A stretch of DNA of 64,000 nt from sequence record PQ471516.1. One strand, 5' to 3'. The position numbers and the translations under genes were made by a program. The notes beneath the pieces were generated by a model. The model was given only the letters and a program-made list of their open reading frames with translations. It was not told the origin of the DNA and searched no databases. Origin of the DNA: Escherichia phage Turkey5. Shown in pieces: positions 17,564 through 37,809 of the stretch (position 1 is the first letter of the stretch; the number at the start of each line of letters is the position of its first letter).

Positions 17564-17590
17564 GGGTTGACTACGGTCAACCCTTTTTTT
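17564..17590 (+). terminator. intrinsic terminator (GGGTTGAC-tacg-GTCAACCC plus T7)
   Basis: Perfect 8 bp stem, tetraloop, TTTTTTT; after sigma factor gene. Confidence 0.7.
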
Positions 17591-18218
17591 ATGGGACAAA
17601 TTCGTAAATGGTGATACAATGATCTATGCACAACCACAATGACAGTACTTGTACTGATAATCTTCCCTAATTCACTTGAAAACGTAAAGGATAGATGAGC
17701 TTTTCATTGTAGCGAACAGCAAAAGAAACCCGTTAGATGTGGGCATAGTTTGAACCCCTCACGGCAATGCGGCTGTATAAAGAACCACGTTAGGATGGCT
17801 GGTGGTTCCTCGATAGACATATAAGGATAACACCTTACGAATTATCTAAGGGAGAGTTATCAGATTTTGTACAATATAGTTGCGTCCAAAATTTGAGTAC
17901 TCACATTAAGTATTTGATTGCATAGATACTTAATGAAGATACACTATGTTTAAAAGTGTAGACCGTCATATGAAACTGAAGTAGAGAGAACCAGGATGAC
18001 CCGCTTTCGTGCTCTTTAAGAGTAATCTTCAATGCAATAGCTCTGATACCATCAGCGTCAAATTCCCCTCGGTGTGGGGGGGGGAAGAAAAATCACCTCA
18101 ACAAATCCCGTCAATATTAAAAGTCCTTGACAGTTATTATACATTCGCGTAAGATACGTAGTATCAGAAGCGAACAGACATCTCGAAGAGATGGATGATT
18201 AACATTAAGGAACATCTA

Positions 18219-18428
18219 ATGAATTCAACAATCTTCTTAGTAGCAGCTCTTTCAATGCAAAGCGGTGTACAAATCACTCCAATGAATTCCATGAATCAAT
18301 GTATTTCTGTTCGTGATAGTACCTACGAACAGGTCAATAAAAATATCTGGATGTCTATTGACAAAGAACAGATGTGGTGTTATAACAGTAATACAAAAGT
18401 TAAACTGTTTGTTGGTGAGAAAGAATAA
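18219..18428 (+). CDS. hypothetical small secreted protein
   Basis: Track ORF trimmed to ATG after AAGGAA; signal-peptide-like N-terminus. Confidence 0.45.
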   Translation: MNSTIFLVAALSMQSGVQITPMNSMNQCISVRDSTYEQVNKNIWMSIDKEQMWCYNSNTKVKLFVGEKE

Positions 18429-18510
18429 TAGTTGACACGTAAGAAGTTCTAGAGTATAATTTCTACATTGAGTACTGAACTAAATCATTAATTAATCAAG
18501 AGGGTTTATC

Positions 18511-18687
18511 ATGCAAGTTATCGTTCTTATTGTTGGTATCGTACTGGGTGTTTATGGTCATTCCTGGATGCAGGAGAAGTTTCCTAATACTCGTCCAGAC
18601 TTCTGTAGCACTACTGTTAGTTCTGAACTATCTAAAGATAGCATTGGAACTAAACTGGATAAAGTACTGAACGTAATTAACGAGTGA
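18511..18687 (+). CDS. small membrane protein (58 aa)
   Basis: ATG after AGAGGG; N-terminal TM helix; below track cutoff. Confidence 0.4.
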   Translation: MQVIVLIVGIVLGVYGHSWMQEKFPNTRPDFCSTTVSSELSKDSIGTKLDKVLNVINE

Positions 18688-18698
18688 GGTAAGTTATA

Positions 18699-18986
18699 AT
18701 GTTTATTCCTAATAATTCTAAAATTGGAACACAAGTACAACTTCTAGAAGATGTAAGTACTTGCAGTGGCACTTTCACTAAAGGTCACATCTTAACTATC
18801 ACAGGTGAAACCGAGCGTGGTTATGATTTGGAAGATGCTGATGGTAATCGTATCTTAGAAGCAGGGTTTAGTCGTTTTGTTGAAGTGGATAGTACTGACC
18901 AGAAAGAAACAGAAGGTCATTGTTTTGATTACCAAGAAGTTAACTCAAAATGTATCTGTGGTGAAATTTATAGTAAATGGGATTGA
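18699..18986 (+). CDS. hypothetical protein
   Basis: ORF track; SD GAGTGAGG. Confidence 0.6.
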   Translation: MFIPNNSKIGTQVQLLEDVSTCSGTFTKGHILTITGETERGYDLEDADGNRILEAGFSRFVEVDSTDQKETEGHCFDYQEVNSKCICGEIYSKWD

Positions 18987-19103
18987 CATAGTATAGAAAT
19001 ACTATATAATGTTTATATCAAAGGGAATGCAGTGAAAGGAAAGACAGCATAATCGTACTCGTCACTGCGTTTCCACCCTTTTAAATTAAATGAGGAATTA
19101 ATT

Positions 19104-19412
19104 ATGTTTCAAACTAACACTCAAGGTTTTGTAATCATCGATCTGAATAAAAACAGCGGTCATTGGATGAAACCTACTGACGCATGTATGCAGTTTGATT
19201 TCTTAGGTTATAAAATCAGTGTAAGCACTGGTGGTTCAGTACTGCGTGGTGGTTGTATCGTTGAACATCTCGTCACTGATCCTGAAGGCCGCGAATACGA
19301 AATCGCAGGTTCAGTACAAGATGCTATCATGTTCGTGTGTCAGCGTGAAATGAATGGCAGTAACAGCAACGCACTGACAAACGCATTATCACAAGAAGTG
19401 GAGGTTCGTTAA
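19104..19412 (+). CDS. hypothetical protein
   Basis: ORF track; SD TGAGGAAT. Confidence 0.6.
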   Translation: MFQTNTQGFVIIDLNKNSGHWMKPTDACMQFDFLGYKISVSTGGSVLRGGCIVEHLVTDPEGREYEIAGSVQDAIMFVCQREMNGSNSNALTNALSQEVEVR

Positions 19413-19657
19413 TGAAATATATTGTTTTAGTAGTAATGGCGTTTTTACTGAGTGCTTGTGATGCAAGTACGAAAGACCGAACCAGTGAATTCCTTCTTCC
19501 TACTGAGTTAAAGGATGCTGGGTGTAAGATTTACCGTATGCGTCAGGAAGGTGATGGTGCAACTTTGTACACAGTTTACTGCCCTCATGCTAATACCAGT
19601 ACATCTTTCCGTACAGGAAAGACAACCGTACATGCATCTGTCATCAATGGTGAATAA
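19412..19657 (+). CDS. putative lipoprotein
   Basis: Signal peptide with lipobox LLSAC. Confidence 0.6.
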   Translation: MKYIVLVVMAFLLSACDASTKDRTSEFLLPTELKDAGCKIYRMRQEGDGATLYTVYCPHANTSTSFRTGKTTVHASVINGE

Positions 19658-19658
19658 C

Positions 19659-35658: not shown

Positions 35659-35672
35659 TTTGTAAAATAAAA

Positions 35673-35703
35673 GGTTGACTTCGGGCAACCTTTTTCGTAT
35701 TAT
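35673..35703 (+). terminator. stem-loop cassette (terminator hairpin with embedded -35, then TATTAT)
   Basis: GGTTGAC-ttcg-GGCAACC, T-run, TATTAT 17 nt after TTGACT; 5' leader identical to 37779 copy. Confidence 0.6.
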
Positions 35704-35740
35704 GTACTCATCGAAACGAAACATACTAAGGATTAAGAAA

Positions 35741-37324
35741 ATGCGTAAACAGACAAAATCAGACATAGAACAATTTTCTCGTAATTATTTAAAAAAACGC
35801 TTTGGTGTTGATTGTTTAATTGAAGTACTTATGAATGAACAAACCCCAAGTAAAAGTAAAATAGTATACCAACATCCCGAACGTTTCCTACCAGTGACAT
35901 GTTGGTATGTTCAAATAAAGCAACACTCAAAATTGAGTGCACCGCAATTAACACGCGAAGAAGTTATCGCCCAAACCGAATCATTATTTGACGATAGTGA
36001 AGGATTTAATATAATTTCGTATGATTTTACTGAGGAGTTGAGTCATACAATAATTACATACTCCCACCCAGAACGAATTAATCCACAGCATGTTGAATAT
36101 TACGTTCTGAAGCGTTTGGAAAGTGCGTCTTCACTCAATCCAAAATACAAGGATGGTGAAATTGAAGAGTTGAGTAAGCAGTATCTTTCCAATTTGGGAC
36201 ATGAATTTGTAAAAATTATAATTGATAATGGGACCGATTCTCTTATAGAATTTAAGGTTGAAAATCGCACACTCCCAGTAAGTATTATCTTTGGTGACCT
36301 TCGGCTACGTTCAAATGAAAGTCGTCCGGTACGCCAAGGATTTATAAGTGAAAATGAATGTGTACATAATGCAAAAAAAGTATTATCAGAACACAAAAAC
36401 ACTTTCATTAAGATTGATTATAATAAATCTGAAGTTAACCGTAGTATGATTCATTATAAATCTTCTAACAATATAATAAATGAAATAAGTTATCACACAT
36501 TAATGAATGAACCGTCATTTATTGAAAAAATAACTCTTGTTTCAATTAAAGAAACACTTGATGATGTATTCCATAATCTAGGAAACGGTTTCAAACTTGT
36601 ATCAGTAGGAGATTTACAGGGCGGCCAAACTGAAATTACATTCAGACACCCACAGCGTATATTACCATGCACTACAACTTTTTATAATTTGAAACATACA
36701 AATCCAAAAACTGGATTTAATCCAAAATTGACATTTGATGAAGTTACTGCAATGGGGGAAGACCACGCTCGTAAACACGGAACTAAGTTTTTGGGGATTG
36801 TTGGGAAGTTTAATGGTTATTCAACACGGCTTTCCTTCAAGTACCATGATAAAATAATTGAACAAACCTACCCAGCTATTTTAGCGGGCTACACTGGGTT
36901 TGGTGGTAGTGGTTATAAGCAACATGCTGATATTGCTCGTGTGTATGTGAATATGAATCATACCAAAGATGGTCTGAATGCCGGAAAAACGACACAAGAG
37001 TTCCATAAACGTTTATCCAAACGTAATAGTTCTTTCAAAAAAATATACAAAATTGAAAAATTCTGGGAAAATATTATGTTGATTGAATTCAAAACAACAG
37101 GTGGTGTGTATGGGGGTGAAATCGCCAGCGTATTGGAAACGTTAATCCATACCGAAGCAAAATGTGGCAACCGTAAAGATAGTGTGTATATGTATGATAA
37201 TGGAGATGGATATCGTGAAACATTCGAGGTCAACTATCTAGACCGTGTAGTTGATGTGATCAACGAATATAAAAAATCATATACACATAGCGTTAAAACC
37301 GACATTCTCGGTCTTCTTGAGTAA
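35741..37324 (+). CDS. hypothetical protein with internal repeats (527 aa)
   Basis: Track ORF trimmed to ATG after AAGGATTAAGAAA; repeated YQHPERFLP / YSHPERINP / FRHPQRILP. Confidence 0.65.
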   Translation: MRKQTKSDIEQFSRNYLKKRFGVDCLIEVLMNEQTPSKSKIVYQHPERFLPVTCWYVQIKQHSKLSAPQLTREEVIAQTESLFDDSEGFNIISYDFTEELSHTIITYSHPERINPQHVEYYVLKRLESASSLNPKYKDGEIEELSKQYLSNLGHEFVKIIIDNGTDSLIEFKVENRTLPVSIIFGDLRLRSNESRPVRQGFISENECVHNAKKVLSEHKNTFIKIDYNKSEVNRSMIHYKSSNNIINEISYHTLMNEPSFIEKITLVSIKETLDDVFHNLGNGFKLVSVGDLQGGQTEITFRHPQRILPCTTTFYNLKHTNPKTGFNPKLTFDEVTAMGEDHARKHGTKFLGIVGKFNGYSTRLSFKYHDKIIEQTYPAILAGYTGFGGSGYKQHADIARVYVNMNHTKDGLNAGKTTQEFHKRLSKRNSSFKKIYKIEKFWENIMLIEFKTTGGVYGGEIASVLETLIHTEAKCGNRKDSVYMYDNGDGYRETFEVNYLDRVVDVINEYKKSYTHSVKTDILGLLE

Positions 37325-37335
37325 AAAAAATAAAA

Positions 37336-37366
37336 GGTTGACTTCGGTCAGCCTTTTTGCTATTAT
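37336..37366 (+). terminator. stem-loop cassette (terminator hairpin with embedded -35, then TATTAT)
   Basis: GGTTGAC-ttcg-GTCAGCC; TATTAT 37361-37366. Confidence 0.6.
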
Positions 37367-37502
37367 ATTAGTACTACCAACGTGAAAGAGTTCGATAAAC
37401 ATCTGAAGAAGAATGGCTTCGATACGAACAACTTTGCTATCAGTAGTATTACTGAAATCATGATTCAATACAACATTATTGTATATACATTACGAGGGTA
37501 AA

Positions 37503-37769
37503 ATGAAACCAATCACAACAACACAGAGTACTAACCTAACGGTTTTACATGATGGTTTAAAAGGTACAGTACGTGATCTTCTGAACTTCATTGATGGTAT
37601 TCAAGGTGATACCGGATACTGCATTTATACTACTATCATTCCTGGTGGTACGGAACTGTACTTCACCAATATGGAAGTATCGGAATCGGGTGAAACTGAT
37701 GATTCATTCCAAGAAGCCATCCAACAATTTCAGGAATCCTTAGAGGATTTAGGTTTTACGGTACAATGA
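37503..37769 (+). CDS. hypothetical protein
   Basis: Trimmed to ATG after GAGGGTAAA. Confidence 0.5.
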   Translation: MKPITTTQSTNLTVLHDGLKGTVRDLLNFIDGIQGDTGYCIYTTIIPGGTELYFTNMEVSESGETDDSFQEAIQQFQESLEDLGFTVQ

Positions 37770-37778
37770 CGAAAAAAA

Positions 37779-37809
37779 GGTTGACTTCGGTCAGCCTTTT
37801 TCGTATTAT
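37779..37809 (+). terminator. stem-loop cassette (terminator hairpin with embedded -35, then TATTAT)
   Basis: GGTTGAC-ttcg-GTCAGCC; TATTAT 37804-37809; downstream leader duplicates 35690-35740. Confidence 0.6.

Follow-up and report, generated by a model that had tools for sequence, protein, structure and literature searches.

Candidate terminator/promoter cassettes of the promoter-early stem-loop kind in a variable gene region of the jumbo coliphage Turkey5

Genomic setting of the repeated hairpin

The 64,000-nucleotide stretch of Escherichia phage Turkey5 analysed here (record PQ471516.1; the whole stretch is called the window below) carries, between 17.5 and 37.8 kb, ten copies of a short hairpin element whose 5' arm reads GGTTGAC and whose 3' arm is followed by a run of Ts. 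Megablast of the 24-38 kb segment placed the source phage in Asteriusvirus (121Q/PBECO4/Rak2-like jumbo coliphages), the top match being Escherichia phage vB_EcoM_JNE01 (95% identity over six pieces that make up 77% of the query), and the window is syntenic with 121Q and other annotated relatives. Judged by this synteny, the plus strand block at approximately 1-42.6 kb contains tRNAs, numerous small genes without known function and the gene of a phage sigma70-family factor, whose open reading frame (ORF; 16594-17556) has the Pfam domains Sigma70_r2/r3; the minus strand block (approximately 43-62 kb) is a tandem array of RCC1-like paralogs. The G+C content is around 35% and uniform over the window. 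All ten copies of the element, which we call cassettes, lie downstream of the sigma factor gene amid small ORFs mostly devoid of a Pfam match, in a region where gene content differs between relatives. Six of the seven exact copies of 121Q fall in the syntenic 97-118 kb region.

Near-consensus TTGACA-N16-17-TATAAT sites without a hairpin are numerous in the cassette block and are confined to the plus strand. Since such promoters abound there, the early genes are evidently read by a sigma70-type holoenzyme. The hairpin type accounts for approximately one quarter of the strong promoter-like sites in the plus strand block, and the terminator-like hairpins on the plus strand of the block are nearly all cassettes.

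Copies of the cassette and their common anatomy

The window was searched with the exact pattern GGTTGAC-N2-5-GTCARCC, and 100 dinucleotide-preserving shuffles served as the null. The pattern was found at nine loci (none in the shuffles), with the loop TTCG in six copies, TACG in two (17565 and 34393) and CGAA in one (26274). When two substitutions were allowed, a tenth copy with one stem mismatch was detected at 35673 (GGTTGACTTCGGGCAACC), whereas a covariance model built from the copies revealed no eleventh plus strand copy in the 64 kb. A preliminary description of the sequence had counted ten such copies, eight of them with a -10 box 17-18 nt past the TTGACT embedded in the stem. Both counts proved right, all ten copies were at the positions it had given and on the plus strand, and no copy is expected by chance.

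All cassettes are co-directional with the genes, and their hairpins start 0-14 nt past the stop codon of a plus strand ORF (Table 1). The stems are lengthened by A-runs upstream and T-runs downstream. Leaders of 25-35 nt follow, then a Shine-Dalgarno site (AGAGGA or TAAGGA) and a start codon; the leaders recur in two types, CATTTCATCAACTCAAGAGGA (type A) and GTACTCATCGAAACGAAACA..TAAGGA (type B). Alignment of the DNA around the cassettes at 35673 and 37779 showed that 73 consecutive nucleotides, from the A-run to the ATG, are common to the two with three differences, and that the flanks are unrelated. The repeated unit is the regulatory cassette itself, extending from stop codon to start codon. 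The earlier suggestion that the copies bracket duplicated gene modules is correct in part only, since the duplication concerns chiefly the cassette: in all-against-all BLASTP of the plus strand ORFs the paralogy near cassettes was weak or short (42% identity over 45 aa, 23% in 119 aa and 55% in 60 aa), and duplicated gene modules were rejected because it is the cassette, not the genes, that the DNA alignment shows to be duplicated.

Table 1. Cassettes of the window with predicted hairpins, putative promoter elements and downstream features
Hairpin start	Extent	Strand	Hairpin (5' arm-loop-3' arm)	Putative promoter elements	Context and downstream features
17565 (17564 counting the extra G)	17561..17593	+	AAAGGGTTGAC-TACG-GTCAACCCTTT, T-run; -18.5 kcal/mol	promoter-like site 17593-17620	directly 3' of sigma factor gene 16594-17556; terminator-only look
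24274	24274..24335	+	GGTTGAC-TTCG-GTCAACC, T7 run	-35 TTGACT 24276-24281; -10 TATACT 24300-24305 (18-nt spacer)	TGA stop of ORF 24088-24279 is the TGA within TTGAC; leader to start codon
26274	26273..26317	+	perfectly palindromic stem GGGTTGAC-CGAA-GTCAACCC, interrupted T-run CTTTGTTG; -16.6 kcal/mol	-35 TTGACC; -10 TATAGT 26300-26305	GAGG 26306-26309; ATG 26315
27834	27832..27898	+	AAGGTTGAC-TTCG-GTCAGCCTT, T-run	none at 17-18 nt; hairpin-free promoter TTGACA-N17-TACAAT 27870-27898
28110	28109..28172	+	AGGTTGAC-TTCG-GTCAGCCT	-35 28112-28117; -10 TATACT 28135-28140 (17-nt spacer)	leader to ATG 28170 of 514-aa gene (virion structural protein in the 121Q annotation)
29725 (type A)	29719..29787	+	GAAAAGGGTTGAC-TTCG-GTCAGCCCTTTTT; -18.9 kcal/mol	-35 29727-29732; extended -10 TGC-TATAAT 29751-29756	leader CATTTCATCAACTCAAGAGGAAAC; ATG 29785
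34393 (type A hairpin and -10 box)	34387..34455	+	GAAAAGGGTTGAC-TACG-GTCAGCCCTTTTT; -19.8 kcal/mol	extended -10 TGC-TATAAT 34419-34424	leader ATCGAAACGA; ATG 34453 of pyrimidine-dimer glycosylase (denV-like) gene
35673 (type B)	35669..35743	+	AAAAGGTTGAC-TTCG-GGCAACCTTTT, A.G mismatch	-10 TATTAT 35698-35703	leader GTACTCATCGAAACGAAACATACTAAGGATTAAGAAA; ATG 35741
37336	37332..37366	+	AAAAGGTTGAC-TTCG-GTCAGCCTTTT; -14.2 kcal/mol	extended -10 TGC-TATTAT 37361-37366
37779 (type B)	37774..37849	+	AAAAAGGTTGAC-TTCG-GTCAGCCTTTTT	-10 TATTAT 37804-37809	leader nearly identical to that at 35673; ATG 37847

The hairpin and the putative promoter in one sequence

A -10 hexamer with at least five of six matches lies 17-18 nt after the TTGAC(T/C) of the 5' arm in eight of the ten copies (TATTAT three times, TATACT and TATAAT twice each, TATAGT once), and in three of them it is extended (TGn). 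With the local hexamer frequency the probability of finding eight of ten copies with a -10 box by chance is approximately 2.5e-8, and at the stringency of at least 5/6 matches it is approximately 5e-13. The coupling is also seen elsewhere: the exact 18-mer GGTTGACTTCGGTCAGCC occurs in approximately 55 copies in 39 IMG/VR stretches, and approximately 53 of these are followed by C?TTTT(T)G(C/T)TAT(A/T)AT at promoter spacing, therefore the hairpin and the -10 box travel together across diverse phages.

The predicted RNA folds have energies between -9.1 and -19.8 kcal/mol, with z-scores of -2.5 to -5.9. Like intrinsic terminators, the cassettes have a G+C-rich hairpin and a U-run 3' of a gene and on its coding strand; the T-run is weak or interrupted at 26274, and the stem is weakened at 35673. 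They resemble intrinsic terminators of the c(UUCG)g type in the G+C-rich stem, the extra-stable tetraloop, the U-run and the location after stop codons. Ordinary terminator stems covary freely, whereas the stem of the cassette is of fixed sequence, because one of its arms doubles as a -35 hexamer; a -10 box at promoter spacing is a further difference. In 130 distinct matches to the covariance model the stem is 96.8% paired and the TTGAC arm almost invariant, and the first T of TTGAC pairs with G in 98 and with A in 21, while in 11 it has no partner. The compensatory changes, which include three from A-U to G-C, affect mostly the outer pair. Since the core stem hardly varies, and the sample is biased by having been seeded with the exact 18-mer, we treat the covariation as weak support for an RNA structure, with the outer pair and the three A-U to G-C changes as its only informative part.

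A single case bears on the two constraints separately. In 121Q and slurp01 the ortholog of the cassette at 17565, the copy lacking a -10 box, reads GGTTGGC-TTAT-GCCAACC: a compensatory change from A-U to G-C has kept the stem and destroyed TTGAC, which matches what a dual constraint predicts. The frequent wobble variant of the 3' arm, GTCAG in place of GTCAA, would keep the plus strand hairpin by a U.G pair while weakening the antisense hairpin and removing the antisense TTGAC, and the antisense folds were indeed weaker, by approximately 6 kcal/mol in the two extended-stem wobble copies tested and by approximately 1 kcal/mol in the copy at 28110.

These data allow two rival explanations to be weighed. 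The elements might be plain intrinsic terminators, the TTGAC of the stem and the -10-like hexamers being unused as promoters. Related genomes are in fact annotated with terminators only: in the CBB paper the 18 'RpoD-like' promoters are all hairpin-free and the hairpin element is listed separately among the terminators (Torf39, AGGTTGACTTCGGTCGGCCTtTTTTGTTATACTT), and the GAP32, Munch and UE-S1 records annotate terminator features. Moreover, two copies have no -10 box, in a third the box is too near the ATG, and -10-like hexamers are fairly common (3.6% per position) in the T-rich, A/T-rich tails. Yet chance hexamers would hardly fall at exactly 17-18 nt in eight of ten copies, three of them with TGn, and the coupling in approximately 53 of 55 copies from diverse phages likewise argues for a promoter, as does the TTGAC arm, which is nearly invariant and has been lost, with compensation, precisely in the -10-less copy. 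We therefore consider plain terminators improbable.

The second explanation takes the inverted repeat over the -35 box as an operator for a dimeric phage protein that regulates or shuts off a subset of early promoters, the hairpin potential being secondary. A palindrome centred on the -35 region is the classical layout of a repressor site, and its presence in only a quarter of the strong promoters of the block would suit a regulated subset. Against an operator stands the A-to-G change that breaks the DNA palindrome while keeping the U.G pairing of the RNA, a change present in six of the ten window copies and in 98 of the 130 matches overall, and an operator has no need for a conserved loop sequence and a T-run. 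Taking into account also that the copies always lie just past stop codons, and that one shared binding protein is unlikely in very different phage lineages and hosts, an operator function appears highly improbable.

Comparison with promoter-early stem-loops and other known systems

Promoter-early stem-loops (PeSLs) have been described as intergenic elements in which a terminator stem-loop is combined with a strong sigma70-like promoter; an A/T-rich tract precedes them, and a Shine-Dalgarno site and the start codon follow. They are concentrated in hyperplastic regions, and the borders of indels and replacements coincide with them (PMC2839356, PMC4122927). Arbiol et al. (2010) treat the coliphages RB49/phi1 (PMC2839356), and Comeau, Arbiol and Krisch (2014) treat PST/T4 and nt-1/KVP40 (PMC4122927). 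The window cassettes fit the published consensus (A3-4G3-loop-C3T3-4; TTGYVH-N17-TAWWAT; PMC4122927).

The nt-1 genome was read at the intergenic sites named in PMC4122927, i.e. ORF109/110 and the 51-56 kb region. The ORF109/110 spacer reads TCAAAAAGGGTTGACAGATGTCAGCCCTTTTTTGTATCAT, the spacer at 54.9 kb AAAAGGGTTGC-TTCG-GCAGCCCTTTTTTGTTATTCT..ATCAACTTAGAGAGG and that at 55.5 kb GAAAAGGGTTGC-ACTA-TGCAGCCCTTTTTAGTATTAT..ACATCGAAACGAGA; the named sites read AAAAAGGGTTGAC-AGAT-GTCAGCCCTTTTTTGTATCAT and similar. The order of parts, and largely the sequence too, is that of the window cassettes: A-run, GGG, TTGAC or TTGC, a 4-nt loop, GTCAGCCC, T-run and TAT(C/T)AT, with the -35 box within the 5' arm of the hairpin. 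As in the window, the nt-1/KVP40 elements are intergenic and lie in variable regions and at indel borders. Even the leaders of the window cassettes are found in nt-1 (ATCGAAACGA and ATCAACT..AGAGG), and they are shared by hairpin-free promoters of nt-1, a further point against plain terminators. The preliminary description had likened the copies to the PeSLs of T4-type phages. The nt-1 sites share the hairpin-embedded -35 box, the spacer, the -10 box and the leaders; since design and both leader types are the same, PeSL is a correct identification rather than an analogy.

The window elements have the anatomy of PeSLs, their position between stop and start codons, the A-rich tract upstream, their clustering among small variable genes and their coincidence with breakpoints in relatives (see below). 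They differ in the phage group, which is Asteriusvirus here and Straboviridae (T4-like myoviruses) in the published cases. This T4-like range is a taxonomic and not a structural property, so the window elements extend the range rather than being excluded by it. In the literature on Rak2/121Q-like phages no mention of PeSLs was found. The nt-1-type PeSLs have already been described; what appears to be new, as no earlier report was found, is their putative occurrence in an Asteriusvirus jumbo phage. The PeSL papers place the stem-loop 'just upstream of' the promoter and leave unstated that the -35 box is the 5' stem arm. The middle-promoter variant (PmSL) was not seen in the window.

The RB49/phi1 elements are the only ones for which experimental promoter and terminator assays and mini-circle detection are available: lacZ fusions showed both activities, and mini-circles between neighbouring PeSLs were detected (PMC2839356). 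As in the window, a near-consensus sigma70 promoter and a terminator stem-loop lie between small ORFan genes, and modules are inserted, deleted and replaced at the elements. However, the RB49/phi1 stem-loop (of the GGGG...CCCC type) in most cases separates the -35 box from the -10 box or overlaps the latter, whereas in the window the -35 box is in the 5' arm and the T-run forms the spacer, and there is no detectable sequence relationship between the stems.

Lambdoid morons are genes flanked by their own promoter and terminator, which have no fixed sequence; morons stand out by their deviant G+C content, and non-homologous recombination is the presumed route of their acquisition. The gene blocks of the window would be similarly self-contained and transcriptionally insulated, and they come and go among related phages, but here one repeated sequence would fill both roles and the composition is uniform. 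An element derived from a miniature inverted-repeat transposable element or an insertion sequence was judged unlikely: no target-site duplications were present at the junctions examined, the hairpin is the sole inverted repeat, 5,426 E. coli genomes held no copy of the cassette, and it matches no Rfam family (no cassette match at gathering thresholds in the whole window, or at E <= 1 in 17560-18200).

Gene blocks exchanged between close relatives

The window was compared with its closest relatives, JNE01 and EJP2, by BLASTN, and each junction was read by eye, which yielded 12 boundaries. In EJP2, the block between the cassettes at 35673 and 37336 is replaced by two other genes, one breakpoint being within the leader at 35720 (+47) and the other at 37327 (-9). 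EJP2 also has an extra unit consisting of a 43-aa gene and a second copy of the cassette at 37779, flanked by two type B copies (direct copies of 55-78 nt), and it lacks denV behind a type A cassette that matches the one at 34393. In JNE01, a four-gene insertion of 1.5 kb, beginning with AAGGTATTGACA and ending with AAAGGGTTGAC, sits exactly between the stop codon and the cassette at 34393, and a replacement spans 34858-37835, with its right end inside the cassette at 37779. A small gene is replaced in JNE01 just past the cassette at 27834 and its second promoter (break at 27884); homology to JNE01 and 121Q breaks at 27855-27884. The remaining JNE01 differences include an intragenic indel at approximately 28750 and an extra 92-aa gene at window position 19005-19031 (JNE01 stretch 9617-10010). 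The latter lies between two copies of a hairpin-free promoter (GATTGACA...TATAATGTTTATATCAAA) that have TATAATGTTTATATCAAA in common; of this promoter the window holds a single copy (18983-19031).

Exchange of modules bounded by cassettes, proposed earlier as something to look for in relatives, was thus found, in the EJP2 block replacement and repeat-flanked insertion and in the overall distribution of breaks: of the 12 boundaries, seven are found between -12 and +62 nt relative to a hairpin start (P = 2e-9 when referred to sequence length, and 2e-4 under a null restricted to intergenic sites). In an automated test, junctions broken in at least one of four relatives were seven of nine cassette junctions and 22 of 62 others (Fisher P = 0.02). 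This test was noisy, best hits to paralogs yielding spurious distances, and we therefore rely chiefly on the hand-checked breakpoints. The gene at 37847 has a type B cassette upstream in the window and in EJP2, and a type A cassette in JNE01, 121Q, slurp01 and fEgEco12, which shows that cassettes can be exchanged independently of the gene they serve. The breakpoints fit modular shuffling of the PeSL type, without proving that the cassettes mediate the recombination.

In fEgEco12 (stretch 29045-29458) and phage UB an HNH endonuclease gene lies immediately upstream of, and overlaps, the type A cassette before denV. Homing endonuclease genes may also use the intergenic sites of the cassettes.

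Occurrence in other phages

A BLAST search with a 49-nt query from the cassette at 29725 matched 180 phage records. These include Rak2-like jumbo phages of Escherichia, Klebsiella (RaK2, K64-1), Cronobacter (GAP32), Salmonella, Erwinia, Yersinia, Serratia and Pectobacterium, and also KVP40/nt-1-like vibriophages, Aeromonas phage 65 and its relatives and some phages of approximately 150 kb (CR3/CR9/CB7). Among 5,426 complete E. coli genomes none contained a match to the 49-nt cassette, and a host origin was rejected on this ground. Two copies of the exact 18-mer with a matching -10 box are present in Brochothrix phage A9, a phage of a Gram-positive host, and the 18-mer is also found in unrelated contigs of 110-160 kb.

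At 37779, approximately 65 nt are 83-86% identical to intergenic DNA of KVP40/nt-1-like vibriophages. As this similarity reaches into the leader, shared descent or transfer is favoured for the vibriophage/Asteriusvirus pair. For the distant lineages the likeness is compatible both with horizontal spread and with convergence on an optimal design. As a tentative suggestion, which we consider unlikely, a unit of 45-75 nt comprising cassette and leader could circulate horizontally among unrelated virulent phages as a free-standing exchangeable module, instead of arising independently in each lineage; the groups concerned would be the Rak2/121Q-like and KVP40/nt-1-like phages, Aeromonas phage 65, uncultured phages of 110-160 kb and perhaps Brochothrix phage A9. 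If this were so, the cassette would be a pan-phage 'plug' that expresses and insulates any incoming gene at once.

In several phages (121Q at approximately 144.9 kb, and others) the cassette precedes not a gene but a conserved stretch that contains (A/C)CCCA(T/C)(A/T)GGGTG(C), for example in cattggcagata..cccattgggtgc. This stretch may be a small RNA transcribed from the cassette promoter. The window has no convincing copy of it (three matches with one mismatch, as compared with 1.5 expected).

Proposed function of the cassettes

We propose, with a probability of roughly 80%, that each unit is a terminator/promoter cassette of the PeSL kind, occupying 45-75 nt between early genes, and that gene blocks are exchanged at the cassettes; termination, initiation and recombination are all deduced from sequence features. 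According to this model the upstream transcript would fold into a G+C-rich stem of 7-8 bp with a c(UUCG)g tetraloop, extended by A-U pairs, and stem and following U-run would act as an intrinsic terminator for the host RNA polymerase. The 5' arm and the first loop base would serve as the -35 hexamer TTGACT, and the 3' arm with the T-run as the 17-18 bp spacer, so that the upstream RNA would end inside the spacer of the next promoter. A sigma70-type holoenzyme would start the next transcript approximately 7 nt past the (TGn)TATAAT-like -10 box, and this transcript would open with the conserved A/C-rich leader carrying the Shine-Dalgarno site. Each gene block behind a cassette would be transcriptionally self-contained. 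The near-identical cassettes would provide short patches of homology for phage recombination, and blocks could therefore be deleted, inserted or replaced between them.

Several observations weigh against this proposal, the first group of them concerning individual copies. The cassettes at 17565 and 27834 have no -10 box at 17-18 nt and would act as terminators at most; each is followed by the separate promoter-like site given in Table 1. At 26274 the predicted transcript start lies past the ribosome-binding site and the T-run is interrupted; because the -10 box is too near the ATG, this copy cannot serve the downstream gene in the usual way, its promoter is doubtful, and it is probably an attenuator. 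(Its loop, CGAA, in 26273-26292 is the reverse complement of TTCG, as if it had been flipped by recombination between the arms, and JNE01 is the same in this respect.) The A.G mismatch at 35673 leaves the weakest fold of all, only -9.1 kcal/mol. The phage encodes its own sigma70-family factor, which bears on the question of which holoenzyme reads the cassette promoters, and the literature searched yielded no mapped 5' or 3' transcript ends, either for this phage or for any Asteriusvirus.

The other group concerns exchange. Five of the 12 breakpoints are away from cassettes. The hairpin is not needed for exchange, since it is a pair of hairpin-free promoter repeats that flanks the JNE01 indel at 19005-19031, and the JNE01 replacement ending at 37779 is no simple crossover between cassettes, because the two phages have different cassettes there and are homologous again only from the start codon onwards. 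Breakpoints at unit borders could also reflect selection on viable recombinants. These points are what would be expected if the cassettes were real terminator/promoter units but not mobile elements or recombination substrates, and if they looked alike because nearly every base is functionally fixed (the -35 box and its complement, the GC clamp, the UUCG loop, the T-run, TGn and the -10 box). The 18-mer with its -10 box in Brochothrix phage A9 and in the unrelated 110-160 kb contigs is in line with such an explanation, convergence being easier to envisage there than descent. On the other hand, the EJP2 insertion lies between two direct cassette copies of 55-78 nt, and the block replaced in EJP2 ends inside cassettes on both sides. 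The 73 nt shared by the copies at 35673 and 37779 include a leader not obviously fixed by function, the gene at 37847 carries one or the other type of cassette depending on the phage, and mini-circles were detected between PeSLs of RB49/phi1 (PMC2839356). Taken together, these data leave non-mobile units as a possible but rather unlikely explanation.

If exchangeable terminator/promoter cassettes are the correct interpretation, composite elements of the PeSL type are not confined to the T4-like phages but occur also in jumbo phages of the Rak2/121Q-like group, in which large, variable early regions mostly lack annotation. There they would supply a rule for early transcription units, each cassette closing one unit and opening the next, and block swaps at cassettes would explain part of the mosaicism of this group. 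Elements annotated as plain terminators in Rak2/121Q-like genomes would also carry promoters. The recurrence of the cassette in distant phages raises the question of convergence versus horizontal spread. Finally, the minimal design may be attractive to synthetic biologists as a very compact part combining insulator and promoter: the 5' arm of a cUUCGg hairpin doubles as the -35 box, the spacer consists of the T-run, and a U.G wobble would confine the hairpin to one strand.

Other features of the window

An ORF-poor segment of the plus strand (approximately 17700-18100) lies downstream of the cassette at 17565 and its promoter-like site. It is 92-99% identical in JNE01, 121Q, fEgEco12 and slurp01, whereas the adjoining genes are approximately 70-85% identical. 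BLAST detected it in 61 records of Rak2-like phages (67-72% identical in those of other genera), usually in approximately four places per genome and mostly unannotated; the window contains no second copy, and Rfam gave no match at E <= 1. The segment contains a G-run (18072-18082) whose length varies among phages. It is a candidate for a multi-copy structured RNA or a cis-acting DNA element.

Between the cassettes at 27834 and 28110 (27936-28109) there are two very short hydrophobic ORFs of approximately 25 and 28 codons, the first of which is replaced by a 97-aa ORF in JNE01. They probably encode small membrane peptides, below the length that ordinary gene callers accept. The tRNA cluster at 219-4443 (plus strand) has six or seven genes (Gly, Ser x2, Asn, Thr x2), and a full-length group I intron (Rfam RF00028, 95 bits) is located inside it at 1685-1998 on the same strand.

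A second, unrelated cassette is repeated on the minus strand before each RCC1-like paralog (window 42696-56091). Its hairpins are at approximately 43994, 46599, 47821, 51481, 52732 and 56091, with variants at 42696, 50204 and 53954, and it reads AATG-CCAGTACT-(CAAG/TTG)-AGTACTGG-C(A/T)TTTCTTTTTGATTAAATATAGTATAATGAATAAAGGAGG..ATG. The hairpin and T-run are followed by a TATAAT-containing motif, and there is no -35 box. This cassette may combine a terminator with a phage-specific promoter and may have been copied along with the gene duplications.

The palindrome AGTACT is approximately nine-fold over-represented in the window (210 sites in 64 kb), and in the corresponding 121Q locus (82399-127742) it occurs 135 times as compared with 14.9 expected; CAGTACTG has 37 occurrences as compared with 1.1 expected. 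AGTACT sites lie both within and outside coding sequences; they are also present in the stems of the minus strand hairpin family and in the spacer just before the -10 box of several hairpin-free promoters (364, 1475, 30204, 32652 and 63334). The palindrome is possibly a protein-binding or modification-related motif.

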